A DNA stretch of 64,000 bases, taken from NCBI RefSeq assembly GCF_036588685.1, contig NC_086379.1, positions 31,744,001 through 31,808,000 on the forward strand, written 5' to 3'. The notes beneath the pieces were generated by a model that saw nothing but the letters and a program-made list of their open reading frames with translations, searched no databases and was not told where the DNA came from. The DNA is from Mytilus trossulus. Its lineage: Eukaryota. A program made the position numbers and the translations under genes. Below, in pieces: positions 677 through 53,589 of the stretch. Every line of letters starts with the position of its first letter. Positions within the stretch are counted from its first letter, which is position 1.

Positions 677-1744
677 CTGAAAAAAATATATCTAAAGATC
701 AGAAAATCGCAAATAACAAAGGAGTATGGATTTTCAGGTAAAAGATTTTAAGAGATAATAAAAAATATCTATGACAGCAAATTTGACGATTATCCCTGTC
801 AGTGAAATTGAAATTGTTTTCAAAACAAATCTTAAAACAACTGAAAGTCAAGAAAGTCAACCAAACAATTTTTGTCAGTTTAAAGAAACAAAATGCAATG
901 AAGCCAGCACTAACCATAACAATTGTGTTATGTTTCTGTACTCACAACACGACATTGTGAGATAAACTTTATAAGTTACGATAGACGCCACAAGTTTTGA
1001 AAGTAAATAAATTAAACAATGTTGGAGAGCGCAGAAAGAACCAGAGCAGCAAATCCTATTTAAGGTTAACTTTGTCCCTAGGTAGCTGCAATCTAAGCTT
1101 CAACACAATTACATTATTTTATCAAAAGGAAATTGACAGTTCAAATGTATAATATGATTCATACCACTATTGAGACAGCGGCAACTAGACGATAAGCGTG
1201 TCGATAATTGCAAATAAACACACCGGTATTGTCGACATAACCCTTACTTGAAAATTGAAACTAGAGAAAAAAATTTGACTGTCTTTTTATATTCAAGAGG
1301 AAATATTTGTCATTTCCAAAGCGCCTGATTCTTGTGTAACTCAATTGTTTTTACAATAATGTCACAGTGTTTCCGTTGCTACATGATGGTATGATGTTAT
1401 TTCGTATCTATGTTGTAGTTTATCTTGTCATAAACGATTATCGATTTACAATAGAGCAATGTCATTGACATATGGTCTACTATTACAATAAAGAACCGTC
1501 ACTTATATTATGTCAAATAAAAACTAATAATCTCCCCAATGAACTGTGTAATAGAAAAGTCACAACGTAACTTCCTTATAGAAACCACAACATAAAATAC
1601 AAGAAGAAAAGCCAACGAAAAGAAACAAGCTAGGCGCTTATCTTGATTTACCATCGTCGGGAAAACATAAACTTAACAACTTAAGGAGCTATGAACAGGA
1701 TGAGAGTTTGTATGCTTTTACTTTTATAGCTAACAACGCACGAA

Positions 1745-1960
1745 ATTTATACCGCCGCTGTTTGACGGTTAGTCCTCGGGGATATCACCAGCGTAGAAGT
1801 CAGAGCTTCAAAAACGATACTGACATGACTTATGATATACTTAATAGTATATGAAATTCCCCGTTCAAAGATTAGTGAACAAATGTTGCAGACAAATTAA
1901 ATCATTCATAAATTTGGCTACTTATTTTTTTTAAGTCCTCTATGGACATAAAGCTCCCGA
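1745..1960 (+). repeat. Degenerate retrozyme fragment without the hammerhead
   Basis: GTCCTCGGGGATATCACCAGC...GACATGA is the reverse complement of the unit body near 5460-5520 / 5815-5868. Confidence 0.6.
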
Positions 1961-3272
1961 AATAAGACCCAAGCATTTTATTGAAAAGAAATTGGCAGAA
2001 AATGACTACATTCGCAATGATCGAAAAATAAATAAATAACAAAAAAAAGCTTAGAATTTTAAAATAGAAATCACCGGGTATTGTGCATTAAGGCGATATC
2101 TTTTTTGCGCCAAAAATGAATTCATTTGCACCACAACTTATTTGCGCAAATACTGCGTCAGCGCAACTATTTAAAAAAAACACTATATGCATCAATTTTT
2201 ACCATCAGAAAAATGAGTGGCACAATTTATACCCTTTCAGAACTGTAATTGGTGCAAATTAAGTATGCTTGTGTATTATTTCATGACATCGGGTCGCAAC
2301 ACAAACTTTACGACGGAAAAAAAAACTTATGCTAAAAGATCAATATGGCGGCCTCTAGCACTAATTTATAATAAGTGGAATTTTAGGTTAACATATCACC
2401 AAAAGTCTTGTTTCACTTTAAAAATATTGGAGAACAGTCATTTACTTATTATAAAAACACAAATTAATGGTATATCTATCCATGACGCAAATTAGAACAT
2501 GTACAAAAAAAACCCACACAAATAGCACTCTTATTATGTATTTTACGTCAGAGAAAAAACGAAATGTTTCTGTCGTTCTCTGGAAAGACGATGTTTTAAT
2601 GGTAATAACATTATAAGTAACAACTAAAGGAATGTGTGAGAAAAATTATTCAGAATTTAATTCAATAGAAGCAACAAAACAAATGTGGTAAACACACTGA
2701 TACAAAAAAGTACACGTGAAAGTATTCCTCCAATGTCTTTTGCACTCAATAAAAACATACTAATTAGTCTTAAACTAATATTTTGTATATATAATGGAGA
2801 CAGGTAATACCTTTCAACTGTTGAAAAAGACAAGATGCATGATAACTTAGTTTTCACAACCAACGAAAAGAAATAAAAATTGGATTCATATACAGTTTGC
2901 GATTGGACAAAAGCAATTACATAGTACAGTACATATATTGTATTTGCCTTTTTAAAACTTCGGTTGAAAACTTTTTAAATTTCTCATTTCCTTTTAAAAT
3001 CAAATGATTTACATAATTTTACTTTACTTTATTAAATGCATCCTTTATGTCAGCATACGTTTTTGTGAAGTAAAACTCCAGTTCAAACGTTTTGAAACCA
3101 AAGATGACGATAGAGTGAATACTTTAATCATCTCGCCTAAAATCAGAAATACTTTTATTTTCATTTATCATATGATTTGATTGGCTAAACCTTCTAATAT
3201 AAATTGATAAAAAAATGCTACTGAAAATACAAAAATTGAAAATCTATTCTAATTTGAGTTGGTTGCACTTCG

Positions 3273-3394
3273 TTTTTTTCAGATTTCATACTGGAAATTT
3301 CAGCATGCTGTCTTTTTTCAGATTTCATACTGGAAAATACAGCATGTTGTCTTTTTTTCAGATTTCATACTGGAAATACAACATGTTGTCTTTT
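3273..3394. repeat. Tandem repeat, 39-40 bp x3
   Basis: CAGATTTCATACTGGAAA at 3280, 3319 and 3359. Confidence 0.9.
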
Positions 3395-5230
3395 GAGAAC
3401 CAAATCAGTCAAGACTTAATGCAGCTTTCCATGATTATCATTCATATCTTTTCTTATGGATGACGTAATCTATCTTGTTAAATTTAGAACAGAAATAACA
3501 CTATTAGATAGCGAATACCGTATAAATGGTAATCAAATGATCCAAAAGCGTCATTATCTTGTAACAAATCTTCAAATAGTCAAATAACAATTGTGGAAAT
3601 AGACTTTTTGTTTTCCACCCAATATCGTGGATATGACAAAAGGGTAGTATGATATTGCATTAATGATTGTCATTGATACACAATTGACATAAGATCAAGG
3701 CCTTGAGAAAGCAAATAGGTTGCATCTCAACCAAAAGACAAGAGGAAAATCATATTAAGAAATACTTTTGTTTTTTATTTTACATATGTTATGAACGTTA
3801 TATTCAATGTTTATAAGTATTGAGAAATTCCCACGAATGTTAAACTAAAACACAAATCGCTGAGAACCCCGTTGAGAGCTAATATCTATAGGTATAAAGT
3901 TGCATTGACTTCTGTCTAAGCATGATAGCCTTTGATACCTATAGTAATGATTTTACCAGACAAAACATACTAGTATTTTTAGCCATCTGAAGGAATATGA
4001 CACGACCTTCATCATCAACGCTGAGACATCTCTTTAATTATAGAAAAGTAAGTATTTATGTTGGTTTTCTTGAACTGATATAACAACTGGAATAATAAAC
4101 TATCTTTAGAAGCAATACAATCAATTCAGGTTTATGTATTTCTAAGTGGGTGGTATATGCATTTATGACGTCTTTAAAATATCATAAGTAGAACATTCAT
4201 TGACCCATTGAATATAAAAAAAACATAAAAATGATCATATTTATCTGATGTTAAAATGAAGACTTAATCACTGGCAATTGATGAGAAAAAACTTTTATTT
4301 AAAAAGATAAAGATGAATAAATATTATGGGTCATGCATAATTATAAGCGTGAACAAATCATCACAAAATCTAAAACACATATCTTAAAAGTATTGCAACA
4401 AAACTATATGATGGACTCTTGATTAAAGATAAAAAAAATATTTCATTTCAGTTACGCCTCGCCTTACAGAATAAATATGAAAGTTGATAATAAAACAAAA
4501 GTTATTTGTGATATGCTGAGAAATCTATTTTGAAATTATATACTTTCAAGACTAATCAACATGCAGTTGATTAATGTTCCTATACATGTAGTTGTTTGAT
4601 TAACGCACAATGGCCAATACATCACGCATATTTAGTACGATATTCTGATAAAAAGATTATAAGGTTTCATGTAGTTAGGTTCCACAAATGAAATCGTGTG
4701 GATAGAAGCCCGGACATTTCGGACGGCCATTTACAACTGAGATGCTGAACGTTCTTACATAACGTAGCTATGAATTTATAAATCCCACTCAGCTAAACGA
4801 ATGGGTTGTTATTTAATTTACTTCAAACCCATTAAATTATGCAAATTTAATCTGTTGTATGACTGGTTCATGTACTTCCAAAAGAGGATCAATTAATTCA
4901 ATCAAGATGAAATTATATGAAATATTTCATAGTTGCATATTGACACAAAAATATTCTTTCCCCTTGATCCCTTTTATTTTAATGCGCTGAAAAATTCTTC
5001 CACCCAAATTGATGTTTTTACATAGTTTAAAGGGGGAACGCTAATTTTCTCGAGTATAACAATGATAACTTACAAAAATCTGAATAAAACCTGCAAAAGA
5101 ACGACAAGTGTTATTAAGTTGCTAACAATTGATTTTAATTTTGATGGATCACTTTACTTTTCCATTTTAAAAGCAATTAAATGAATTTGATTTATAATAG
5201 TTATCAAAAGTCCCTGGATTATAATTAAAT

Positions 5231-5274
5231 ACGCCAGACGCGCGTTTCGTATTCATAAGACTTGTTAGTGACGC
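5231..5274 (-). ncRNA. Type I hammerhead motif with mutated core
   Basis: Minus strand GCGTCA CTAACAA GTCT TATGA ATAC GAAAC GCGC GTC TGGCGT. Confidence 0.7.
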
Positions 5275-5586
5275 TAATATCAAAATAGCTATAAAGCCAA
5301 GCAAGAACAAAGTTGAGGAGCATTGATGACCCAAAATTTTCAAAAAGTTTTACCAAATACGGCTAAGGTAATCTATTCCTGGGATGAGAAAATCCTTAGT
5401 TTTATCGAAAAATTCAAAGTTTTCTAACAGGAAATTTATAAAAATGAACATATAATTGATATTTATGTCAACACCTAACTGATGTCTACTGGACTGGTGA
5501 TACCTTTGGGGACGAAACTTCCACCGGCAGTGGCATCGACCTAGTGGTGTAAATAGTTATCAAAGGTACCAGGATTATAATTTAAT

Positions 5587-7496: not shown

Positions 7497-8340
7497 AACA
7501 ATCACCGACTGAATGTTTAAGGAAATACAATCAGTGTCTATAATTGACTTGTTATCTGAATGTCAAAGTTTGGTTATGATGACAAAAATGTCTTCCCTCC
7601 AAACTTTACAAGAAAATGTTTTGAACAATAGCTTAACAATATTTTTTTTTCTATATATAATGTTATCTTATTATTTCCTTTTAAAATAAGAAAAGAGAAA
7701 AATTGCAAGCTATTGAACCAAAATACTATTTATTTCCTTTTGAATGTTTATGTCACAGAAATATGGACATGCTTCGTACACTGTATATAGCTAGACCATC
7801 GAAGTCAAGAGAAATGTACAAAACCAGAATTGAATGCTTCAGCTGTAAAGATTAACAATTTCGTAATTAAAATTAATAAGCAAATTTTAAGAACAATTAT
7901 ATTGATGCGAATGAATATATTGGTTGATTGGTTATTTGGTGTTAACGCAACTATTTGCTAATATTTACAGACATATTTTATTGGTGAATGAATTTTACGA
8001 ACACACATAATAAGTAAAAAATTGATTCCTGAAGAAACTAGACACTTTTGTCCAGGTAATTTGGGATTGTAGAGAGCTCACAAACATGTCTAACCGCACC
8101 ACATTGTTTATCTAAAAATAAGTAGATTTAGTATGATATACAACGAGACAATGATCCATAAAAGTGCAAATGAAGTACATGTAAGCCTTTATAGGCAACC
8201 GTACGGCCTTTATCAATTAGGGAAAATATCCCAACGGCTATAAAAGACCCTGACATGAAAAATATGAAATAGTTCAATTTAGAAATCAGGGTAACAGTTA
8301 GAAGACTTTTGAAAAGGGACCCATGCTTAAATGGGTTTAA

Positions 8341-8720
8341 TTATTAAATATTCGAAAGAAACCATCAGATATAAATTCAGGAATTCGATATACCAGATAA
8401 AAGATAACCCAAATCCATTGAAATCACTCGTAATATTTCCAATGACTCCAGATTACCTTCGTTATACAAATGAAGATAAATTGTAAGACAAACTAAATAA
8501 TAATCATAATAAAAAACAACAAATAGTAAGTTTGAATTTTGGCAATTTTTTGTCATGGATTTATTAGGACAGTTCAACTATATATCAACCGGCCTATGAA
8601 TTTGCATTCATCGACAATGTATCATTAATGTCCAAGATAAAAACATAGAAGGGCAACCATCATATGTTTTCTCCAAATGGCAACTGGGCTACCAGACGCC
8701 AACTGTAATAAATTCAGCCA
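8341..8720 (-). repeat. Split direct repeat B2 (380 bp), 3' end of the element
   Basis: Identical by eye to 9048-9427. Confidence 0.95.
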
Positions 8721-8838
8721 TTCAGTAAATCAATACATTCAGATCATATTCTGTCCAATCCATGACGCTTCTTTAACGATATCTGAAAATATACAACAGA
8801 GAGCAGAAAATATTCTCAAGGGTGGGATAGGGTGGGTT

Positions 8839-9047
8839 TTGTGTTCCTTCAGTTGAAATCACGCAATGAACAAATCACGAAAAGCATGCAATTTTATACC
8901 AAATAAAAGCGGGAAAACCGCTTACGAAATTATGTAGATAAACAAAAGACGCTCAAGTCCTTCAAAATTAAAGAAAAGATAACTCTAGTTTAGCAGACGA
9001 TAATCTTAATTTATTAAATTGATTTAATGCTTAATGATTAAATCTTA
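8839..9047 (-). repeat. Split direct repeat A2 (209 bp)
   Basis: Identical by eye to 14897-15105; abuts B1. Confidence 0.95.
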
Positions 9048-9427
9048 TTATTAAATATTCGAAAGAAACCATCAGATATAAATTCAGGAATTCGATATAC
9101 CAGATAAAAGATAACCCAAATCCATTGAAATCACTCGTAATATTTCCAATGACTCCAGATTACCTTCGTTATACAAATGAAGATAAATTGTAAGACAAAC
9201 TAAATAATAATCATAATAAAAAACAACAAATAGTAAGTTTGAATTTTGGCAATTTTTTGTCATGGATTTATTAGGACAGTTCAACTATATATCAACCGGC
9301 CTATGAATTTGCATTCATCGACAATGTATCATTAATGTCCAAGATAAAAACATAGAAGGGCAACCATCATATGTTTTCTCCAAATGGCAACTGGGCTACC
9401 AGACGCCAACTGTAATAAATTCAGCCA
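9048..9427 (-). repeat. Split direct repeat B1 (380 bp)
   Basis: Identical by eye to 8341-8720 (offset 707; the same 66-aa ORF appears twice in the ORF track). Confidence 0.95.
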
Positions 9428-9565
9428 AATGCTAGCAAACTTGTTTGTAAGCATCGCCAAACAAAATTTATCAATCCATGACAAAAAATTAACTTTAACA
9501 CACAAAACAAATTAAAAATTTAGGTTTTGAACAAACATATTAATTGAACTGAGTTTAACAACTAA

Positions 9566-10604
9566 ACATTAGTTCGTCGAAGTATATCAACTATACTAGA
9601 CATTAGTTCAACGAAGTATATCAACTATACTATACAACAGTTCAACGAAGTATATCAACTATACTATACAACAGTTAAACGAAGTATATCAACTATACTA
9701 TACAACAGTTCAACGAAGTATATCAACTATACTATACAACAGTTCAACGAAGTATATCAACTATACTATACAACAGTTCAACAACGAATATCAACTTTAC
9801 TTACAACAGATCAACGAAGTAATCAACTTTACTATACAACAGATCAACGAAGTAATCAACTTTACTATACAACAGATCAACGAAGTAATCAACTTAACTA
9901 TACAACAGATCAACAAAGTAATCAACTATACTATACAACAGTCCAATGAAGAGTATCAACTAAACTATACAACAGATCAACGAAGTAATCAACTTTATTA
10001 TACAACAGATCAACGAAGTAATCATCTTTACTATACAACAGATCCACGAAGTAATCAACTTTACTATACAACAGAACAACGAAGTAATCAACTTTACTAT
10101 ACAACAGATCAACGAAGTAATCAACTTTACTATACAACAGATCAACGAAATAATCAACTTTACTATACAACATATCAACAAAGTAATCAACTTTACTAAA
10201 CAACAGATCGACGAAGTAATCAACTTTACTATACAACAGAACAACGAAGTAATCAACTTTACTATACAACAGAACAACGAAGAATATCAACTATACTATA
10301 CAATAGTTCAATGAAGAATATCAACTAAACTATACAACAGATCAACGAAGTTATCAACTTTATTATACAACAGATCAACGAAGTAATCAACTTTACTATA
10401 CAACAAATCAACGAAGTAATCAACTTTATTATACAACAAAACAACGAAGTAATCAACTTTACTATACAAAAAAACAACGAAGTAATAAACCATACTATAC
10501 CACAGATCAACGAAGTAAAAAACTTTACTAAACAAAACATCAACTAAGTTATCAACTTTACTTAACAAAAGATTAACGAAGTAATCAACTTCACTATACA
10601 ACAG
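9566..10604. repeat. Minisatellite of ~31 units of 33-34 bp (CAACAGATCAACGAAGTAATCAACTTTACTATA) inside the Ngaro element
   Basis: Tandem array seen directly; 34-bp variants on the left, 33-bp variants on the right. Confidence 0.95.
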
Positions 10605-10799
10605 TACAAATATAAACAACGTGCACAGCAAAAATAAGATTTTAAAACTTTGTATTTACAACTAACAACAAAACTGTTGTATATTCAACAGAGCTGTTCA
10701 ACTTGATGCATTAGTTTAACAAATGAAATAAATTATTCAACTGACATACGACTTCATGTGTCCATGCACGATGGCTTGCAACTTTAAATAGGTTAAAAT

Positions 10800-10995
10800 T
10801 CATTTGGGTATAAAAATCTGTTTGGATCTTAATAAACAACTCTAATGCTGACTGCATAGCATTAATAAAAATGTCACTGCCAATATATGACAGATTCGCC
10901 ATGATCAGCGAAAAGAGTTGGGTGGATATCATCAAAATCAGTATGTTTAATAGCCTTGCCCCCAACTTTGTGTAAGTAAGATCTAACCCCCTTTG
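10800..10995 (-). pseudogene. C-terminal remnant of the SGNH-hydrolase ORF known from Ngaro elements
   Basis: GVRSYLHKVGGKAIKHTDFDDIHPTLFADHG/(frameshift)NLSYIGSDIFINAMQSALELF resembles the D-G-V-H-L-S..G block V region of SGNH hydrolases. Confidence 0.65.
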
Positions 10996-11720
10996 TTTAA
11001 AACAGTCTGAAACTGAAATCTTGACAATGATTTCCCATTTATATGGCAAAAATGAGGACCATCATATCCAGGTCTTATTTGCAAAAAGGCTTTCAAACTT
11101 TGTAGAGGACAAATCTCATTTGATTCATTTTTATTTATTTTACAACTAAAGTAGTGGATCTCCCTTTTTGATCAGTTTTGAAAAAAATAAAATAAAATAT
11201 TTTAATAAACAGCTAATTTAAGATGGTCAATATAAACATCCCGCCTATGTAAAACATGCTCTTGCATAACATTCGTTGTAATGGCAAATTCACTCACACG
11301 TAAAAATGCAGCAAGCGAAGTTAAATGCTGTTTGAAACAATATTGTTTCATAATAAGAGCACACGTGCCTCAAAGCCACATTTAATCTAATCAATATCAA
11401 TGGTCAAAGGTGCCCGAAGATCTTAAGAATTGTAAAGTCTATTACAACCACCCAAAAGTTTCTGAATGATAAAAGATTTAGTTAAATCTTCATTCCCTTG
11501 AATTTTCAATTTGTAACTTATTCCAGATATATATGATCTAATTGTAACGATGAATAATGATTTAGTGACAAAAAACCAATGTAACCAATAATTTGTCTGT
11601 TACTTGGTGGCCAACTAAGGGGAATAGAATATTCCATCCTGAACATATTGAACGAATGCAATGCATTTTTATAAACATTTCTGGTACTTTGAGAAATTGA
11701 ATAATTCAACAATTTTGAAG
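10996..11720 (-). pseudogene. Tyrosine recombinase, N-terminal and middle part only
   Basis: SISQSTRNVYKNALHSFNMF; KTDQKGRSTTL; ICPL..LKAFLQIRPGYDGPHFCHINGKSLSRFQFQTVLNK. No downstream HSFRIGAAT / GRW / catalytic Tyr motifs were found. Confidence 0.8.
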
Positions 11721-11749
11721 CTTCTATAACAAAAGATCTAAGAACTCAT

Positions 11750-13200
11750 GTAGAATAGTTTGTGGCGTCCGGTCGGCATTGCGCGTTACTTCTCTGAACT
11801 TCTTCATCTGTCCACGAGATAAAGCATCAGCAATAAAATTGTTTTTGAAAAAATATGCAACGCTTTAAATTAAAAATTAGATAATAATGTCCACAAAACT
11901 ATTTTTCTTAACAAAAAAAAAAAAAAAAAAAAATAATCCTATCATTTTTTGAAGATTTTGATTTAAAAATGTAACAACAGCCATATTATCACAATGAACA
12001 ATTATATTCTTATTCATAAACCTTTGTTTCCATAAAAAGATGGCCAAAGCAATAGGTATAATTTCCAATTAAGTAATGTCACTTAATAAAACTTTGCCCC
12101 AATTATGGCCATTGTAAAATTGCCCATGGTCCATTTAAATAAGCTGCACAAACCAGTGAATGACCACCTGCACTGTCAGTATACAAATGTAAATCAGCAT
12201 TTTAAACCCAATTCAAATCTTGGATATATGTTTAGCCATTAAAACATATTGCCACATATGCAAATCATCTCGTATTCCTTTGGTCAATCTTATAAAATGA
12301 TGAGATATTTTAACATTTTTTAAAAGAGCCAAATAGATGCCTCATAAATGCCCTTCTGGAGGGAAGAGCCCTTGCACAAAAAGCCAATGAACCTGTTAAA
12401 GACGCACTTCTTTCAGAGTAACTTTTCTTTTGCTATAGGAACATCCAAGTTTGAGCAAACTTTTGAAAATGCAGTCGCAAGACAGAGACAGTCATCTTTA
12501 TGAGCTTCTCCAACAAATATAAAATCATCAAGATAATGATCCAAATTTCATAATGCGTTTTATTTTTAACTGACCAATGCAAAAGGTTGAAAATTTTTCA
12601 AATGTAGCACAACTAATAGAACATCCCATGGGCATTATTTTTTGGATATAGTAAAGACCATTTAGTTTCAGATACCTAGTAAATCAAAATCACCAGGATA
12701 ACATTTAAGTAAAGGAAAATGCCGATTTAATATTCATATTTGCCATTAAAGCCGAATTCTCCATTTGTTTTACAATTTTGACTGCATTGACAAATGATGA
12801 ATAAGTGACGTTGATAAACTGAGTATCAATAAAATCATTGATACTTTCATTTGAAAGTAAGACAAATAAGTTATCAATCGAAGTCCACCAGTTTTCTTAG
12901 GAACTAAACCAATAGGAGAGCACCGAAGATTTGAAATAGGTTTATGTTTGAATGGGCCTGCCATTCGACCTAATGATATCTCATTATTCCACTTCTTTTG
13001 AGCTTCAAAATGGTTTTTCAAAACAGACAACAAATTTCTATATTCACAATTCACATGAACGTGTAGACCTAATGAATTTTAAAACCATATTTAAATCCAT
13101 TCAAAAGTTCAACAGCGCATTGCTTATCATGATATAGTTCCAGAAGCTTAGAGAGTTCATTTACATTAACCGGAGATGTTCATAGGGCCCAAATATTAAA
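11750..13200 (-). pseudogene. Ngaro reverse transcriptase / RNase H, disrupted
   Basis: GRMAGPFKHKPISNLRCSPIGLVPKKTGGLRLI; HYLDDF at ~12521-12538; RNase H motifs LYTDSAGG, EIIPIALAIFLW...HCDNMAVV and NFIADALSR. Several frameshifts and stops. Confidence 0.88.
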
Positions 13201-13229
13201 CTGGTCTGGATGTAGTTCTGAAAAATTAT

Positions 13230-14179
13230 AAATTATCTTTGCTTAAAACCTCTTTTTTGGTTTTGTCTATTAGCAGAGTTGTTAACAAAACGTGAAATGT
13301 TATTTCTCTTAAACCTAGATGGACCAGTATTACATTCATAGTCCATAAAGCAACGACAGCATAAAGCAGGATGATTAAAACCACATTTGAGACATGCATG
13401 CCTGTATGGGCAAATGCGTTTATTGGAAAAACCTTTAAAATTAAAATCACAGCATTTATATCCAACATTAGCCTGCTGTTGTTTTTGAGTATTGTTAGTT
13501 AAAATACGCAACAACAAAAAATAAATAAAAATCTATGGATGACTGTATGATCCCTTGATACAACTCAAACGAAATTATTGGTCATAAGAATACCATTTTT
13601 CGACAGGATGATCAGCCGCTGCACCGCTTATGATTGACATATATGAGAAAAGTTCACTTGCTTTTCCCGGATACCTTTCAATAAGGACCTGGACACAAGC
13701 AATACAACCATCAGTCCAATCCTCAACATAATTAACAGTATGGTTTTTCTAAACTTTGTTTTGTATAACCAGCATACCGTCATTAATTTCAATGGTGTTT
13801 TCATTTTGTTTGACTGTTGAAATTGTTTTGATGCATTAGGGACAAATCAATATATTCAATGCAAAAAAATTTTCCTTAAGCTTTTGAGTTATCAATATAA
13901 CAACCTCATTAAAACCAGGCAACATAGAGGTTCATCAAAAACATCAATAACCTCACCTAAGGCAGCTAATTCAGGTTCAATCTCTTGAATTCTACATCTG
14001 GTTGCAAGGCAACTAGTCGAGGTTCATCAACCCTCCGTCGTCTTACTACAGGGGCATCTTGATCAACTTTGGGACGCCTTTTTTCATTCCAAATGGTGGT
14101 TGAAGTTGTTCCCTGGGAGCCATTCTAAGACGAAGTCTAACCGTGCATGCCGACGACGCCTGCCTCTACCTCTTGGCAT
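13230..14179 (-). pseudogene. Ngaro gag-like ORF1, frameshifted
   Basis: Starts MPRGRGRRRRH. Contains KWYSYDQ*FRL (W..YD..FR motif, ~13570-13600) and a Cys/His knuckle CCDFNFKG..NKRICPYRHACLKCGFNHPALCC. Confidence 0.75.
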
Positions 14180-14896
14180 TGTTATAAACTATTATAATTA
14201 TTAAAACAGATTAGCTACATACATCAAGTCTTGAAAGCCAATTCATCTTTCAAAATATAAATTCAACTTCTTATTCTCTCATTCAAGTTAGATAAATAAA
14301 ATACCACATATAACCCACTACGTTGTCTTAAATAAAATTAATATATATTTGAATGCATTAAACAACTGAAGTTGGTAACAAAACACAATTAAAACAAGTG
14401 CAATGTTCCTTCAAACCAAATATAACGTCGATATAAACGATAAGTTAAATTAACAAGCTTATTTAATTATCCGCAAATCAAAAAACTTATAAAAGATGTA
14501 CGTGTAACAAATTAAACATTAGCGGGCATGTAAATGTTAAAACGGCTTACACTACAAACATGTAATTACCTGTTTAAAGAATATCGCTCATACATTACAA
14601 TCAAAACAAATATATCACCTGTATTAAAGCATTTTAAATTTAATGCTATTCAATGATTAATATATGTGTGCACAAATGTAACTATTAAATAATAGTCTAA
14701 TCAGTATAAATGCTATCCAAGTAAGCGATACATTGAATTAAGAATCAAAATTTTTGCAAGAACAACTTTCAAATAAAATAGAATTATTCTTTATAAATTA
14801 CAGAAATAAAATCTTTCGGAAAATTCAACTGCAACAACTATATCAATTTATCACTAAAACATATGAACTTATCTTATGTCTGAATCAGCCTATCCC

Positions 14897-15105
14897 TTGT
14901 GTTCCTTCAGTTGAAATCACGCAATGAACAAATCACGAAAAGCATGCAATTTTATACCAAATAAAAGCGGGAAAACCGCTTACGAAATTATGTAGATAAA
15001 CAAAAGACGCTCAAGTCCTTCAAAATTAAAGAAAAGATAACTCTAGTTTAGCAGACGATAATCTTAATTTATTAAATTGATTTAATGCTTAATGATTAAA
15101 TCTTA
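14897..15105 (-). repeat. Split direct repeat A1 (209 bp)
   Basis: Identical by eye to 8839-9047. Confidence 0.95.
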
Positions 15106-15313
15106 GTAAAAAAAAATCCCGATACACTGGTAGTAATAATCTGAATTATAGGCAACAAACTTCTAAATATGAGCGATGTTCAATCTTGAAATTTATTACG
15201 TTATGTCGGTTGAAGGAATCACCTTTCATTATAATGTTAAGAGTCTTAAAATCAAGATATTAATGTGTTGAATTATTCAACTAATGAATATTCATTAGTA
15301 ATTTGCATATTAA

Positions 15314-15472
15314 TCTCAGTGTGTATTTTTGAAATCTCATTGTGTAGTTAACAATTTTCAGTGTATGTTTTGCAATTTATTTCACCTCAGTGTGTCTTTT
15401 TAAAATCTCAGTGTGTAATTTTGAATTATCAGTGTGTGTTTTTTATTTTTTTAAATCTCAGTGAGTATTTTT
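15314..15472. repeat. Degenerate ~21-bp tandem repeat (CTCAGTGTGTATTTTTGAAAT)
   Basis: About 7 recurrences of TCAGTGTG-like units. Confidence 0.75.
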
Positions 15473-18400
15473 TCCAAAAACGGATTTAAACATAGTTTTG
15501 ACGAGAACGGCTTGCCATAAAATAACTTAAAAATTACAAACTAAGGTTTACCTAAACTTTTTCCTGATCATATTAACAGCAACACTAATATATATAGGCA
15601 GATTGTATTGTCTCAATACAAACGTAAAGCAATTTCCCCACGTCAAACTTTCGTGTACGAAATTCTTAACCTGTAAATTAACTTAGTCTATTTTAGTGTA
15701 CAGTAGATACGGTTGGCTATATTTGTAATGGCAGTGCGAGTGCCTCATGATTCGATCTTCCGAGTGTTATCAAACGGTGTCTTTATGTAAAAGCTTGTAT
15801 GTCATGTCTGACCCAAGGTTATCGTTATTTTTCTTTTACAATGCCTATAAAAGTCCACTGCTTCATAAATCATTCCGACGATTTAATCGTCTGCCTACAT
15901 TAGTTTTACAGGAATGGTTCGTAGTTATACTGACCCCTTGTAACTTATTTTGATGTCCAAACACCATAAGCATTCTATCACATGAAACCGGAAGTTAATT
16001 ACTTTGTTGAAGTAATCTGAGTTATCAAAACATTTGTTACAATCGTACTGGATTGTGCAGACATTTGTCTTATTTATATAGTCTTCAGAACAGACAAAGA
16101 TCATCAAAAGCCAATTAATCATTAAAAACCGATACGTTGTGATAATTTATATCATAAACCAAGAAAAATTTAATTAATCGTTTCCGAGTGAGAAAACATT
16201 TAAATCAATTTAGAAAAAGTTGTATGTATTCCTTAAAGTATTTTCGTCCAGATAAAGCGGTTACTCACATTTGCACTGTTACTAATCAGTCTATTTTCTA
16301 AAGGCTTTATAAGCAGTAAACTGTAGCTGGAATATCTCAAGTGGTTTTTAGCCAATTATTGTTCCGAACCAAAGAGTTATAATGGTTCCTGTATTCTATA
16401 ATAGCTAATCCTGTTAAATCACTGAAACGAAATGTATTGTACAAAGATGTTCTTATATCAAAGTTAATGTTTGCATTAGACGGGAGGATATTATCAAAGT
16501 AAAGTCAATTGCATTTAGTAGAAATAGTCATTCAGTAAAAATAATTCTTACTATGAAAGTAAGAAGATCTAGTATGATAATTTTCATGATCAACTCGATC
16601 TTTACCAGTGACAAAACAACTTAGATTTACATAAACGTTTTCGTAAATGTGAATTATACTAAAATCTAAACTCTTCAATAATTATAAAAAATAATTATCG
16701 CATGGCATGTTGTCATGTATCTTTTATATTTCTGTTAGTTCACATTTTAAAGGGAACCATTAACAGATCAAATATGGTCAGTAAACAATGCAAGTTTAGA
16801 CAAGCTTAATATTAGTTTAGCTATTGATAAAATCGATCTCACAAGGATACTCATGGGTGCTATCAAAAGTTTACAATAGACCACATCATGGCCATCAGCA
16901 ACAATTGAAAAAGGACAATAAGGGTTCATATACCAGCAACAAAACATTAAATTTAGCAATCCAAATGTCATAAAAAAATTAAGTTGATCTCGCGGAAATC
17001 AGAAAGGTAAAAAGATTTCTTCTTCGGTTGAAGGTCGTCGTGTTGTTGGGGCAAAACAAAATCAGATAATTAATGTTTTTTAATTTTAATTTAATTTTTT
17101 ATGAGGAACAGAGAACGGTATAAATCGTATACACCGTATGTGTATCTCAACGGTTAATTTTGCTTCTTAGATTTCTTGGTGTTTAATGCCATTTTCAGAA
17201 TATTGCGCCTTTTCTGGGAAGTCATTTTTAATAGGTGTAGAAAGCTAGAGTTCCCAAAGAGAAAATATAAGTTAAATAGGAAAATGGACAGACCGTGCAA
17301 GGGCTGTATAGCTGCAAGATCGTTAAAAACTTCCATAGGACAATTTACAATCCCAGTCAATTAAGATTGAGTCGAAAGCACCAAAGCGTACTGAGTTCAA
17401 ACTTACAACTCACTGTTAATAGGCTATTGATACAGTAGTGTCAGTTACTTAAACAAATTGAACTAAGTTCATCTACATTACAGATTTATTTTCATATTAG
17501 TCAAGTATCCTTTATTAAAAAAGACAGGTTTCCTATATGGTCTCAAGGATTGTGACCGGATTTATTTCTGTTCAAGAACAATTAAAAGCTGAAAATAGTG
17601 TGCCGACTTTCTTTAGGCAAAGGGTTTTGTTATCTTTGTTCTTTACTTTTAAAAATACGTATCTGGTTCCCTTGGCGAGTCAAAAATCATTTAGATTTTT
17701 CAAACATCAAAATTGCGTGTATTGTAACCGTCAATCGGTACATGAATTATATACTCTTTTTGGTCTCTTGAAAGCTTTCTCATTGACAATCATATCACAT
17801 CTTTTTTTTTATAGTTACAATAAATCATTTTAACACAAATTGAATTTCTCTCTACTTTTTGAATTTCGGCTGTTTAAGGTAAGTAAAAATCTCGTATGTT
17901 TTTATGTAGGTAAAATGTTTGGCACCTAGTCAAAATAATAACAGATAATTAACGCAAAATGATTCCTAAATTTGATTTGACTTCTTTGCTTTGGATAATT
18001 GATTCATATGTATATGACAGATGTTGTCCATTCGTTTGATGTGTTTGAGCTTTTGAGTTTGCCATTTGATTAGGGACTCTCCGTTTTGAATTTTCCTCGG
18101 AGTTCAGTATTTTTGTGATTTTACTTTAAACATCGTGAAAGGTTTAGTAGTCAACTTATCTTGAGTTTTTTTTATTACTCAGATTCCTTTTTTGTAATAT
18201 ATATCGAAATATCTGATTTATTTTTTCCCTGCATATCTGATTTTCATTATTTTTCATTTTACTAATTGTCTAGTTCTGAATGGCTTACTTCCTATAATCT
18301 TGGGTAATATTCTCTTGAAAGAATTGTTAATGGCCTCCACAAATCAATTAAACACGACTTTTAAAATGTAAAACTGATCCGTTCTTATTTTATCTTTGCG

Positions 18401-25212: not shown

Positions 25213-26645
25213 AAGAGTCTATCAAGGAACAATGCTGATATTAGCTGATCAAAGTTTGAGCTATTATACTTAAAGATAGTTTTATTTTTACCAGACTTTT
25301 CAAACATTCACTTTGATTTTAGTTTTAAGACTGAGATTGAATCTCCCTAAAACCAACATTGATCTACCTTGTGTAGGCTGTTCTATTGAGGTCACTATCT
25401 AGTTTTAAAGAGATTTTTCTTGCCAGTATTACTATGTTTTCTACAAAAGAATTAGGCGTTTCGAAAAAATTATTTCAGTCAATTATATATTTATTGGCTT
25501 TGACGATGAACAACCGAAGTAATGATGTTTCGATTCAAAACTTTTAAAAGTAAAATAAATAAGTAGTACATCATTATATTCATAGACAATCAAGAATGTA
25601 ATACCTGCTACTGCCTATCATCTTCAAAACTGTAAGATATTAATAACCACTTTTTAAAGCAAAAATTATCAGCAAACAGAGTTCTTCATAAAAGTAACCT
25701 TTTACCAAAATTGTTTGCTTACTTTTTATACAAGTTATTGACTTGAAATGATGATTATTACCTTTTTTGTGATTAAAGCAAAAAAGTTAAAGAACATGGA
25801 GAGAAATCGTAATAAGAAACAAATATCAGCACTACAATATCGACAAAAAAAAAGAGATTATCATCATGAAGTCTATTCTAGTCCACATTGTTGAAGTTTG
25901 TTCATTTTTGAATATGCATATATTCTTAGGGGCTCATATTTGATGAAGTTGTCAGATAAAAAAAAGTTATCAAAGATACCAGGATTATAATTTAGTACGC
26001 CAGATAAATGTCTGCTAAAACTGTATTGAAATGATAACTGATAGCTTTATTGTTCTGCTTCGTGTAAAATATATCAAAACTATTATTGTTAATTTCCTCA
26101 TGTCAGAAACGATAGACTGACGAGTAAATAACAAGTGTCGTTCACTTGTCAAATTTTGATCAGTCTATGAAATAGGTTGCCTTTTCTTGAAAAATCAGTA
26201 GTACAACATATGTTTAAAATCACGTAAATGTACTGAATATGCCTTTTATCAATAACGCTAAATGCTTCAAAGTTGATAGTGAAAACTTTGAAATTAGAAG
26301 ACCTGTTATGTTGATTAAACATAGAATTTGCAGGCACTTGTGTACTAATCGTAAAAAACATATATATAAATAAGATGATGTGGTAAACAACATCTCTCGT
26401 CAAGAGACCAAACCAAATGACACAGAAATTAACATCTTTAGAGGGCTACCGTATAGCCTTCAACGATGAGCAAAATGCTCATATATATAAACCTACACTG
26501 ACCATTTAAGGAAATCAGTAAATAAATAAATGTACGATTTTAAAATTAGGTCATTTGCCCATATTTTCAATATTATATCTTTATTCCTTTTATGGAAAAA
26601 TATTTGTTCCAAAACTCCCCACAGAGATATATATATATAGTAGAA

Positions 26646-35400: not shown

Positions 35401-36440
35401 AAAAGAACTCCAATGAAAATTATAGAAAGTTTATTATCAAATGGTCACATCAAACCCGCAAACAAATCACAATAAAAAATAGTTTAAAGAAATACGGTTA
35501 AATATAGTTTCTTATAGTTTCAATGAAATAGTTACAGAAATAATTGCATATGTCAAATTTGAATAATATTCTGTTTCAAACGGAAAAATTGATATAAGAG
35601 TGCCCTTGGGACTATTTTTCATTGAGGACTAACACAGTGTGTACATTTCTAACGGAATTTTAACATGTTTCCTCTGTTATTATACTTTCTCTCTCTATCT
35701 GTCTCTATGAGTGTATTTGAGAGTGTGTTCCCACACCAAATAACTGGATACTATTATTAATGATATCCTTTTTAGCTAACAATAGTATTCCGCTGTTTAA
35801 AAGTCATAAATCGATTCACTGAACACAACCCAAAACCGAGTTAAACACATCAACTATAGGAGGAAACCAACTGAATAACAAAAACACTGAACTGCTAAAA
35901 AAAAACCCAAAAAACGCCAACATAAAAGAAACGGACATCTATACTCTGACTTCGTATAGGACATTTTAAGAAAGATAATGGTTTGAACTTGGTGTTATAG
36001 CTAGCCAAACCTCCCGCTTATACGGTAATGTCAGAAAAAGTAAAACTCGTTTAATACCTACTTCAACCCGCATATTCGGTATTAAAAAAAAAACAAAAAA
36101 AAGAAAAAATATATTTTGTTTTGTTTTGGTCAACATCGTAGGTAATGTCTTTTTAATTTTATTGTCCCATTTAAAATTGTTGATGAAACTGAAAATACCT
36201 GACTTCAAAAATTGTGTTGACATCTTAAATATATACCTCAATACTAAAAGTAATTAGAAATTAGAAAAACTCAACTTGATAGGATGTATATTGAACCTAT
36301 GTGTATCTTCGAACCAATTTGATATATCAAGTTTATTGCCGTAAATAAAGTAGCCATATAGAGTTTATCATGTGATTTCGGAATATCGTTTTCCTAAATT
36401 TTGCATTCCTATACTTAAACCGAGTTCTTCTTCCTCAGTT

Positions 36441-38863: not shown

Positions 38864-39727
38864 ATAACAAATAAACTGCGTCATGAGCGCATGATACGCC
38901 CGTCGTCTTGTGTGACAGTTTTATGCAATAATCATAAATAGTTTCTGAGAAAGTTTAAAGCAATAACCATATATTGTTTTTGAGATACGGAGGGACATAT
39001 CCTTCTTTTTTTCAAAAAAACTAAATATCACTAAAATAAAATTTTGAATCAAAATCAAAAAGTATACAGATCTTAAGATTAATATAACAAAGAAGTGTGT
39101 AAAGTTTTAAGCAATAATCATAAATTGTTTTAGAGATACGGCGCGACATGTAAAAAACCCCTCCCCCTTTTTAAAAAAATACTAAATTACTGAAAAATTA
39201 TATTTTGAATCATCACCAAACAGTTAACAGATCTTTAGATTAATATAACAAAGAAGTGTGTAAAGTCTTAAGTAATAATCACAAATTGTTTTTGAGATGC
39301 GGCGCGACATGTAATAAACCCCTCCCCCTTTTTTACAAAATATTAGATAACTCAAAAATGAAATTTTGAATCATCACCAAAAAGTAAACAGATCATAAGA
39401 TTAGTATAACTAAGAATTGTGTAAAGTTTTAAGCAATAATTAAAAATTGTTTTTGATATACGGGCGACATGTGAACCCCCCCTCTTTTTAAGCTACAAAG
39501 TGCCGTAACTCAAAAAGTTTTAATCTTATTTTCACCAAAAAGTATATAGATCATTTGCCTGTCATAAGAACCAACTATAATGAGTTTCATGAAATTTGGA
39601 TAAGTCGTTCTCAAGTTACGGTGCGACATGTTAAGGCCCGACAGACAGACAGACGGACAGACGGACGGACACCGGATATATGTATTACATAATACGTCCC
39701 GTCAAAATCTGGACGGGCGTATAAAAA
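38864..39727. mobile_element. Helentron-associated (HINE / pearl-like) non-autonomous element with ~160-bp internal tandem cores
   Basis: Subterminal IR ATACGCCCGTC (38894-38904) / GACGGGCGTAT (39712-39722); cores start at ~38950, 39101, 39262, 39423; GACA/GACG microsatellite; terminal hairpin followed by an A run. Confidence 0.8.
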
Positions 39728-43997: not shown

Positions 43998-44372
43998 TTA
44001 TATTTAAGAATTGAATGCTTCTTTTTGTAAATTTATTGGGGTGTAAAAGCGTTGACCGAAGTACATTTTGTATGAAGCGCGGAAGCGCTTCATACTAAAA
44101 ATGTGCGCACGGTCAACGCTTTTACAACCTTATAAAGTTACAAAAAGAAGCATTCAATACTTATAATTACATTTTTTAGCTATGATTATGAAAACACGAA
44201 GTTTTATAAATTTTGTATTTTATTCACCTGTGCACTTTATTGTGGGACCACGTGCTATCATGAATGAAAAGTGTTATTGAGTGATGCGATTGCCTACGGA
44301 ATAACACGTGATGTGCAGTTAGCCAATCAAAATAAAGTATTATAATGAAACATACATCTAATGTAATTATAA
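43998..44372. mobile_element. Non-autonomous element: ~160-bp palindrome plus IR-bounded unit
   Basis: Hairpin 44005-44163 centred on GCGC-GGAA-GCGC; 13-bp IR TTATAATTACATT (44161-44173) / AATGTAATTATAA (44360-44372); degenerate copy at ~24925-25020. Confidence 0.65.
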
Positions 44373-50400: not shown

Positions 50401-50727
50401 AGTACACATAACACAACATACGCAACTGAAGATAAAGCACAACGAACCCCACCAAAATGTTGGAATAATGTCAGGTGCTCCGAAAACAAAGCATTTCTTA
50501 CTTTACATACGACACCCGTCGTATTACTCTTATGAACTCATTAATAAGATTTAAAGTTTGTATGGCATTACATAAAAGTATATTGGTAATTGATCCCCTA
50601 ACTATATATATATTACAGGCATTTTCTAAATTTAGGCATTTTGTAAAATGCCTGAAAACTTTAGGCATTTTCCAAAATGCCTGCAAGAATCACTCATTAT
50701 TTATAATGACAAAATTTGCTAGGCATT

Positions 50728-53065: not shown

Positions 53066-53589
53066 ATCATAAGGCATAAAAAAACATCCGATCTGTTTTT
53101 TGGAGAATAAATTAGTTCTACTAAGCCATTAGTTTTTTTCTCTGTAAGATATTGTTTTTTGTCAACTTTTGTCATATGCATCTTAATGATATCCTTCTTC
53201 TACAAATTGTCTGAAACTCAACAGGCAATTTGTGGAATTTTGCATCAAAATTTCAGTCATTTTACAAAACTAGGTATTTTTAGTCATTTGGTAAAATGTC
53301 TGGCAAGGTTAGGCATTTTCTAAATTAACTGAAAATTCAGTCATTTATACAAAATGCCTAAATTTAGGAAATGCCTGTAACATATACAATATACATAGAT
53401 AACAACTGCCACATTCCTGACTTTGTTCGGGACATTTTAAGAAAATCTTGCTACATGACATTTAAAGAGAGACTTTTCCAATAACACACGCGTGTCATTA
53501 CAAAGAATTGACGAGACGGTTACTGGTATAAACAGCACATATATTCAAAAAGTAAAAGCCCCAAAGTACAACACTTAATCTAATAGCCA

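Follow-up and report, generated by a model that had tools for sequence, protein, structure and literature searches.

The window analysed here is a 64,000-nucleotide (nt) stretch of the Mytilus trossulus genome (assembly GCF_036588685.1, contig NC_086379.1, positions 31,744,001 to 31,808,000), and all coordinates are positions in it. It contains a 6,765-bp element of Ngaro type (DIRS order), which lies on the − strand and is read from 15105 to 8341 in the order A1, 5' untranslated region (UTR), gag, reverse transcriptase/RNase H (RT/RH), tyrosine recombinase (YR), hydrolase remnant, tandem array, B1A2, spacer and B2. The features of the element given below are on the − strand, apart from the tandem array, to which, as to the host-repeat pieces, no strand applies.

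Repeat boundaries were set by exact-match extension. A1 (14897–15105) and A2 (8839–9047) agree over 209 bp with 0 differences, and B1 (9048–9427) and B2 (8341–8720) over 380 bp with 0 differences, the B match extending one further base by chance. The identity of both pairs, as claimed in an initial annotation made from the sequence alone, holds over these lengths, but for A not to the family boundary. There A measures 211 bp, and A1 is 2 nt shorter at its inner end than in most copies (a loss shared with L021 and L022), so that A1 and A2 are not strictly identical at this point. The B1|A2 joint has the sequence expected for a circle junction, and A2 is separated from B2 by a unique spacer of 118 bp (8721–8838).

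The 5' UTR (14180–14896) was mapped onto a near-intact relative. It is followed by a gag-like open reading frame (ORF) with frameshifts and stops (13236–14179), named by position; no Pfam match was obtained for it, even with the intact relative's version. The RT/RH ORF (11727–13242) is broken and carries a 133-bp deletion at 12431/12432, directly after the YLDD motif. The YR ORF (10895–11826) is likewise broken, and a deletion of about 583 bp at 10894/10895 takes its C-terminal end (GRW and RYIR motifs) together with most of the fourth ORF, which encoded an SGNH/GDSL hydrolase and is reduced to about 100 bp (10796–10894). A 33–34-bp tandem array of about 31 units (5 in near-intact copies) occupies 9552–10604. 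Compared with a near-intact relative, 38 frameshifting indels and 13 in-frame stops were counted (both numbers are alignment-dependent), and no stop-free stretch of at least 130 amino acids (aa) was found in any forward frame of the element. The decay of gag, RT/RH and YR noticed initially was thereby confirmed. The element interrupts an older host repeat, of which a left piece (8258–8340) and a right piece (15106–15520, about 90% identical to paralogs) flank it.

The split direct repeats are arranged as A1-ORFs-B1A2B2, plus the spacer between A2 and B2. In the near-intact relatives, RT and RNase H are followed on the same strand by YR, with internal repeats downstream of YR and the SGNH hydrolase ORF after it. 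Pfam searches of these relatives gave RVT_1 above the cut-off (E 4e-13), RVT_3 at E 5e-5 to 6e-4 (near or below its cut-off), Phage_integrase at E 8e-4 (below the curated cut-off) and Lipase_GDSL/GDSL_2 at E 5e-7 to 1e-4 (not above the curated cut-offs). The methyltransferase domain of PAT-like elements, the lack of which sets Ngaro apart from PAT and DIRS1, was not found in the Pfam search of the four ORFs (no such family at E up to 1), a search that could miss a divergent domain, and the 549-aa ORF2 is wholly occupied by RT and RNase H. ORFs of the window copy are 89–94% identical to those of the near-intact relatives. Among the 120 RT matches listed, the named relatives included mussel, scallop and clam proteins and no named Ngaro or PAT reference protein. 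Judged by sequence, split repeats and domain set fit a Ngaro retrotransposon as outlined in published descriptions (split direct repeats, gag, RT/RH and YR; PMC9210276, PMC4157794, PMC8547959).

Shared lesions, insertion sites and near-intact relatives

Genome searches, in which 22 of 217, 40 of 197 and 40 of 155 candidates were scored, retrieved 40 loci of the family; as only part of the candidates was scored, family copy counts are lower bounds. 24 copies, including the window copy, were aligned, and the other 17 loci (partial, interrupted or short) were omitted. An ORF tree separated a near-intact clade (L039–L043), a dead clade D1 (the window copy and 11 others), a dead clade D2 (5 copies) and two single copies (L035 and L050).

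Frameshifting indels were counted if present in the window copy and absent from the five near-intact copies. 24 of the 38 are common to at least 10 other dead copies, and 12 of these 24 also occur outside D1; the rest are common to 1–9 copies (6 indels) or private (8 indels). At least 10 copies likewise share 11 of the 13 in-frame stops, although three of these 11 adjoin indels and could result from the alignment. The count of frameshifting indels did not include L050. Its apparent D1 lesions, which had made it a candidate mosaic of dead and helper sequence, were traced by tile-wise identity to misalignment around its own deletion. The deletion of about 583 bp is present in all 18 aligned dead copies, and the 133-bp deletion in 11 of the 12 D1 copies; the remaining D1 copy was not scored for the latter. 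Sharing of lesions is nested (18, 12–13, 3, 2 and 1 copies), so that dead copies produced further dead copies over several rounds. Changes inside D1 and along the D2 stem gave a ratio of nonsynonymous to synonymous change (pN/pS) of 1.04, a value indicative of neutral decay; when the near-intact copies were compared with all dead ones, the ratio was 0.54.

Eleven sister copies and 6 further, more distantly related dead copies carry the nested lesions, all at unrelated sites. Other copies with the same lesions, for which the initial annotation had proposed a search, therefore exist, and the lesions are not those of a single copy decayed at its own locus. When 300-bp flanks were compared among 23 copies, matches were limited to 2 pairs and to stretches of 73–102 bp. 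All copies start and end at the same element positions, and the target motif has T at −3 in 30/30 copies and A at −2 in 29/30. Several independent insertions thus share inactivating lesions. All 11 host-repeat paralogs run across the window insertion site with no duplication, which indicates insertion without target-site duplication; Ngaro insertion is not known to create any. In an empty-site test for presence or absence of the insertion in four DNA runs, the unique flank was covered, no junction-bridging contig was among those listed, and loose ends matched host-repeat paralogs. The target itself is an abundant host repeat of about 500 bp with internal 21/71-bp subrepeats, present in at least 40 copies at 84–90% identity.

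Within the near-intact clade, every ORF is open in at least one copy. One copy has open gag (324 aa), RT/RH (549 aa) and YR (332 aa) frames and identical repeats. The window copy differs from the five near-intact copies by 2.7–3.1% in A-spacer-B and by 6.5–11.1% in the ORFs (Fisher p about 1e-9 and 2e-8). Between clades the corresponding values are 2.7–3.5% for A-spacer-B and 6.3–13.9% for UTR and ORFs. The repeats therefore diverge about three times more slowly than the ORFs and are about 97% identical in the near-intact relatives; cis sequences are conserved and common to the dead copies and a coding partner clade, as in a non-autonomous subfamily. In other split-repeat families, none of 20 loci shares A or B, and one shares 56 bp of spacer. 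Because of its close A-spacer-B and the absence of A and B from these 20 loci, the near-intact clade is the best candidate source of proteins, and its five members are likely helpers.

Further lineages were noted alongside. A 4.2-kb lineage (L051 at 1225–5402, also L052–L059) has lost most of RT and YR and has A1 equal to A2. The gag frame of L051 is open (333 aa, 76% identical to near-intact gag), and L055–L057 share an additional 5' deletion. In the relative L081 (778–8112), three repeat pairs stand in an unusual order, X Y Z at the 5' end and Z X ... Y at the 3' end, and there is no C-rich tract at an A2 end. An RT search of the genome gave 144 matches with E no higher than 1e-30, many of which lie in open frames of 500–630 aa and in sets of equal score; to judge from such matches, many young families of this kind are present.

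The window copy is, very probably, a young non-autonomous Ngaro copy whose genes were broken before it inserted and which was likely moved by proteins of the near-intact clade acting in trans. A recent insertion of an already dead element with the aid of an active partner had been proposed initially; it is supported by the nested sharing of lesions among copies whose sites are unrelated, and by the presence of near-intact relatives in this genome. Gag, reverse transcriptase and tyrosine recombinase would be supplied by the near-intact sister clade, and the dead RNA would be transcribed and packaged. Both repeat pairs would be reset in each cycle from the internal B1A2 unit, and the recombinase would carry out an exchange between the B|A junction and a short target, TA(A/T/C). 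The DIRS-1 RT is reported to work in trans (PMC7192593).

Several points weigh against this explanation. The step in trans is inferred and not observed, and in the DIRS-1 work as reported a truncated element yielded complementary DNA (cDNA) and no completed retrotransposition (PMC7192593). No examined copy has four open ORFs, the three-ORF copy being frameshifted near the hydrolase start, and tile-wise identity revealed no clear mosaic of dead and helper sequence. pN/pS on the D1 stem was 0.64, with small counts (11 synonymous, 27 other changes). Finally, 4 of the 12 D1 copies lack A2-spacer-B2 and solo units exist; recombination between repeats within a copy is therefore probable, and conversion may add identity and mimic youth.

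Repeat identity and alternative explanations

In the window copy, 0 differences in 589 repeat positions set a 95% upper bound of 0.5% divergence, and 9 of the 19 copies with all four repeats show no substitution in either pair. The window copy carries 21 private substitutions in 3,866 body columns. Had these arisen in place, 6.4 repeat differences would be predicted, and 0 were seen (P=0.0017), so most private body substitutions predate the last reset of the repeats. Gene conversion could equally leave repeats free of differences.

Under that alternative the copies would be older than they look, having spread in trans long ago, with conversion within each copy keeping the repeats identical since. 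Products of A1-A2 or B1-B2 recombination are indeed common. They comprise 13 solo A-spacer-B units, the four single-B copies of D1 (copies of this form, without A2-spacer-B2, include L027, L028, L030, L033, L053 and L057) and copies with extra A-spacer-B units (L059, L075, L082, L091). In addition, several copies combine many private body changes with no repeat difference (84 and 0 in L032). The solo units were found among 41 matches (L093–L105), measure about 707 bp and have precise ends and the same target motif. In a tree with weak support they fall in various places between the full-length clades and do not form one clade, which favours repeated origin from full-length lineages; chromosomal recombination and circle resolution at its two junctions would give the same product. 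Neutral change in place with conversion, however, predicts 65.8 private changes per repeat set, and 22.5 were seen (13 dead copies, P about 1e-9; P=0.009 without the four most diverged copies). Such a deficit suggests that the repeats were under selection while the element was being copied. Divergence is, moreover, equal for the A pairs and the B pairs (0.24% and 0.25%; 18 copies, L035 left out) despite lying 6 kb and 0.7 kb apart, and conversion would still require trans-mobilisation. An old origin masked by conversion is hence improbable, and gene conversion alone, one of the alternatives named at the outset, fits poorly.

Trans-mobilisation by way of RNA was also weighed against a route without RNA, in which the dead copies would have spread as DNA, either through segmental duplication or through circles that the recombinase excised and inserted again. 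In principle, DNA circles are possible substrates for a tyrosine recombinase, and neither intron loss nor cDNA that could demonstrate an RNA step was observed. Against this, unrelated flanks and precise ends exclude segmental duplication. In 18 copies, 19 private variants occur in both repeats of one copy, as expected if a single template gives rise to each pair. Because the ends of an integrated copy are A and B and not two junction sites, simple excision would not be expected. Spread as DNA was accordingly regarded as very improbable.

Contigs at least 95% alike cover 24–30 of 30 bins of 10660–14890 in four runs from four studies. The 133-bp joint is bridged by listed contigs in all four runs and the 583-bp joint in one (1 listed contig). 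Since other samples carry the same deletion joints, the deletions are not assembly errors. Three of the four runs were only guessed to be RNA, so these contigs say nothing on expression; none of the listed runs containing element sequence is recorded as RNA, and two of them carry the label mollusc metagenome. That identical repeats or broken frames are artefacts of assembly or polishing is scarcely credible: several private indels do lie in homopolymers (e.g. the long A run near 11910–11935) and errors may account for part of the 8 private frameshifts, but most lesions recur across chromosomes and include long deletions, near-intact copies of the same assembly have open frames, and the collapse of repeats considered initially would favour the family majority base, whereas the window copy has two private A variants, each present in A1 as well as A2 and absent from 17 other copies.

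The C-rich tract and other candidate signals

At the inner edge of A2, the spacer of the window family opens with a C-rich tract (8836–8820, − strand; four GGG runs on the + strand), a candidate signal for priming or strand transfer. 13 of the 20 other-family loci have a resolved A2 end, and the tract starts there in 12 and 10 nt later in one. The remaining 7 show the tract after the ORFs (two loci) or none at the A2 end (five, including L087 with a shortened A match). The tract was thus found at the A2 end in 12 families including the window family, the RTs of which are 31–67% identical. It holds 11–12 C in 16 nt; only 0.1–0.4% of sequence windows have 9 or more. Among 79 metagenome loci, 26 were long enough and 7 had resolved repeats, all 7 with the tract (one assembly, about four families).

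As A1/A2 homology stops at the tract, it likely marks a start of synthesis or a template switch. The primer of DIRS elements is described as unknown (PMC7192593), and the tract sequence is too variable for one fixed primer to be obvious. We tentatively propose, as a possibility we consider rather doubtful, that the tract is the priming or transfer site of Ngaro RT (equivalent to a primer binding site behind an internal B1A2 'long terminal repeat'), that the lineages form a deletion series for cis signals, and that the array may hold dead RNAs near helper length.

Other candidate signals were rejected. Pairing of the sequence after A1 with the tract involves 8 complementary nt in D1 only and is not kept in the near-intact clade or other families. 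A perfect four-run G-quadruplex motif occurs in the window family and 1 of the 20 other-family loci, too few for a general signal. Pairing of the spacer with the region before B1 is not supported in the window family, where the longest exact complement reached 7–9 nt (z −0.6 to −0.8 against shuffles, 3 copies), and a B1|A2 junction hairpin in the window family gave z about 0 (one 80-nt window). At B1|A2 junctions of other families (L073–L089), the single-stranded DNA fold was more stable than shuffles in 7 of 9 families, with z from −2.3 to −6.3 for a single 80-nt window of the sense strand set against 60 shuffles.

The tandem array has 5 units in all five near-intact copies and 22–50 units in all 18 dead copies. 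Dead copies with all four repeats measure 6.4–7.4 kb (near-intact 6.76 kb) despite 0.6–1.3 kb lost elsewhere; expansion of the array has thus maintained their length and is possibly a form of length compensation. A strict length constraint was rejected, as the 4.2-kb lineage and a 3.4-kb lineage also spread.

Elsewhere in the window, 42-bp inverted repeats (93%) at 50607–50648 and 53345–53386, 2.7 kb apart and with 29-bp subrepeats, possibly belong to a DNA transposon. A 54-bp inverted repeat (91%) with a 51-nt loop at 44005–44163 resembles a miniature inverted-repeat transposable element. Other interspersed repeat families were located at 35778, 41673, 42971, 46328 and 59820, and at 26642, 27238 and 55631, and a 161-bp tandem array at 39007–39489.

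Comparison with known elements

The Xenopus Ngaro elements DIRS-53_XT and DIRS-54_XT share with the window family the A1...B1A2B2 layout, gag, RT/RH, YR, an SGNH hydrolase ORF and the lack of a methyltransferase, as far as they are described in PMC9210276. Unlike them, the window family has the 118-bp A2-B2 spacer and a bivalve host, and most of its copies belong to dead subfamilies with shared lesions (compared with the available text of PMC9210276). Degenerate copies are described in that text, without a subfamily spreading in trans (PMC9210276). Ngaro elements of Cafeteria burkhardae have the same arrangement of repeats, also occur as solo AB units and include a deletion variant, type 2b, that lacks ORF1 and is present in multiple copies, according to the account available (PMC8547959). 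Type 2b, as presented there, lost gag by one deletion, whereas in the window subfamily all ORFs are decayed at near full length (PMC8547959). Unlike in Cafeteria, a separate lineage in the mussel genome keeps only gag.

TOC1 of Chlamydomonas reinhardtii is not known to carry genes. The window subfamily, unlike TOC1, keeps readable pseudogenes, so that the order of decay steps can be worked out. A likeness lies in the reported status of TOC1 as a non-autonomous version of a YR retroelement (TOC3) that has made new insertions (PMC5613634); Toc elements are assigned to the PAT group (PMC4157794). SIRE of Trypanosoma cruzi, related to VIPER, consists in the description available of A2, about 30 bp of unique sequence and B2, and so resembles the 707-bp solo A-spacer-B units; whether it is mobile or a remnant is left open there (PMC6681497). 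The 13 solo units differ from SIRE/VIPER in falling among full-length clades, which favours repeated origin.

Non-autonomous elements of this order are accordingly known already from the published accounts (TOC1, PMC5613634; SIRE, PMC6681497; Cafeteria type 2b, PMC8547959). The literature searched, with key reviews, Repbase and supplements lying outside it, yielded no description of a Ngaro subfamily that is decayed yet full-length and spreads in trans. The dead copies are evidence at the genome level that all of the Ngaro cycle, up to and including integration, can likely be carried out in trans; the DIRS-1 assay, as reported, could not show this (PMC7192593). For annotation, broken ORFs do not imply that a copy is old or immobile. 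If the proposal for the C-rich tract is true, dead full-length, gag-only and solo lineages would be a natural deletion series marking the cis signals of a retroelement group. The tract at the A2 edge offers a definite starting point in the search for the unknown primer. A helper clade, two dead clades, a gag-only lineage and solo units share one genome, so that cis signals may be read from what survives.

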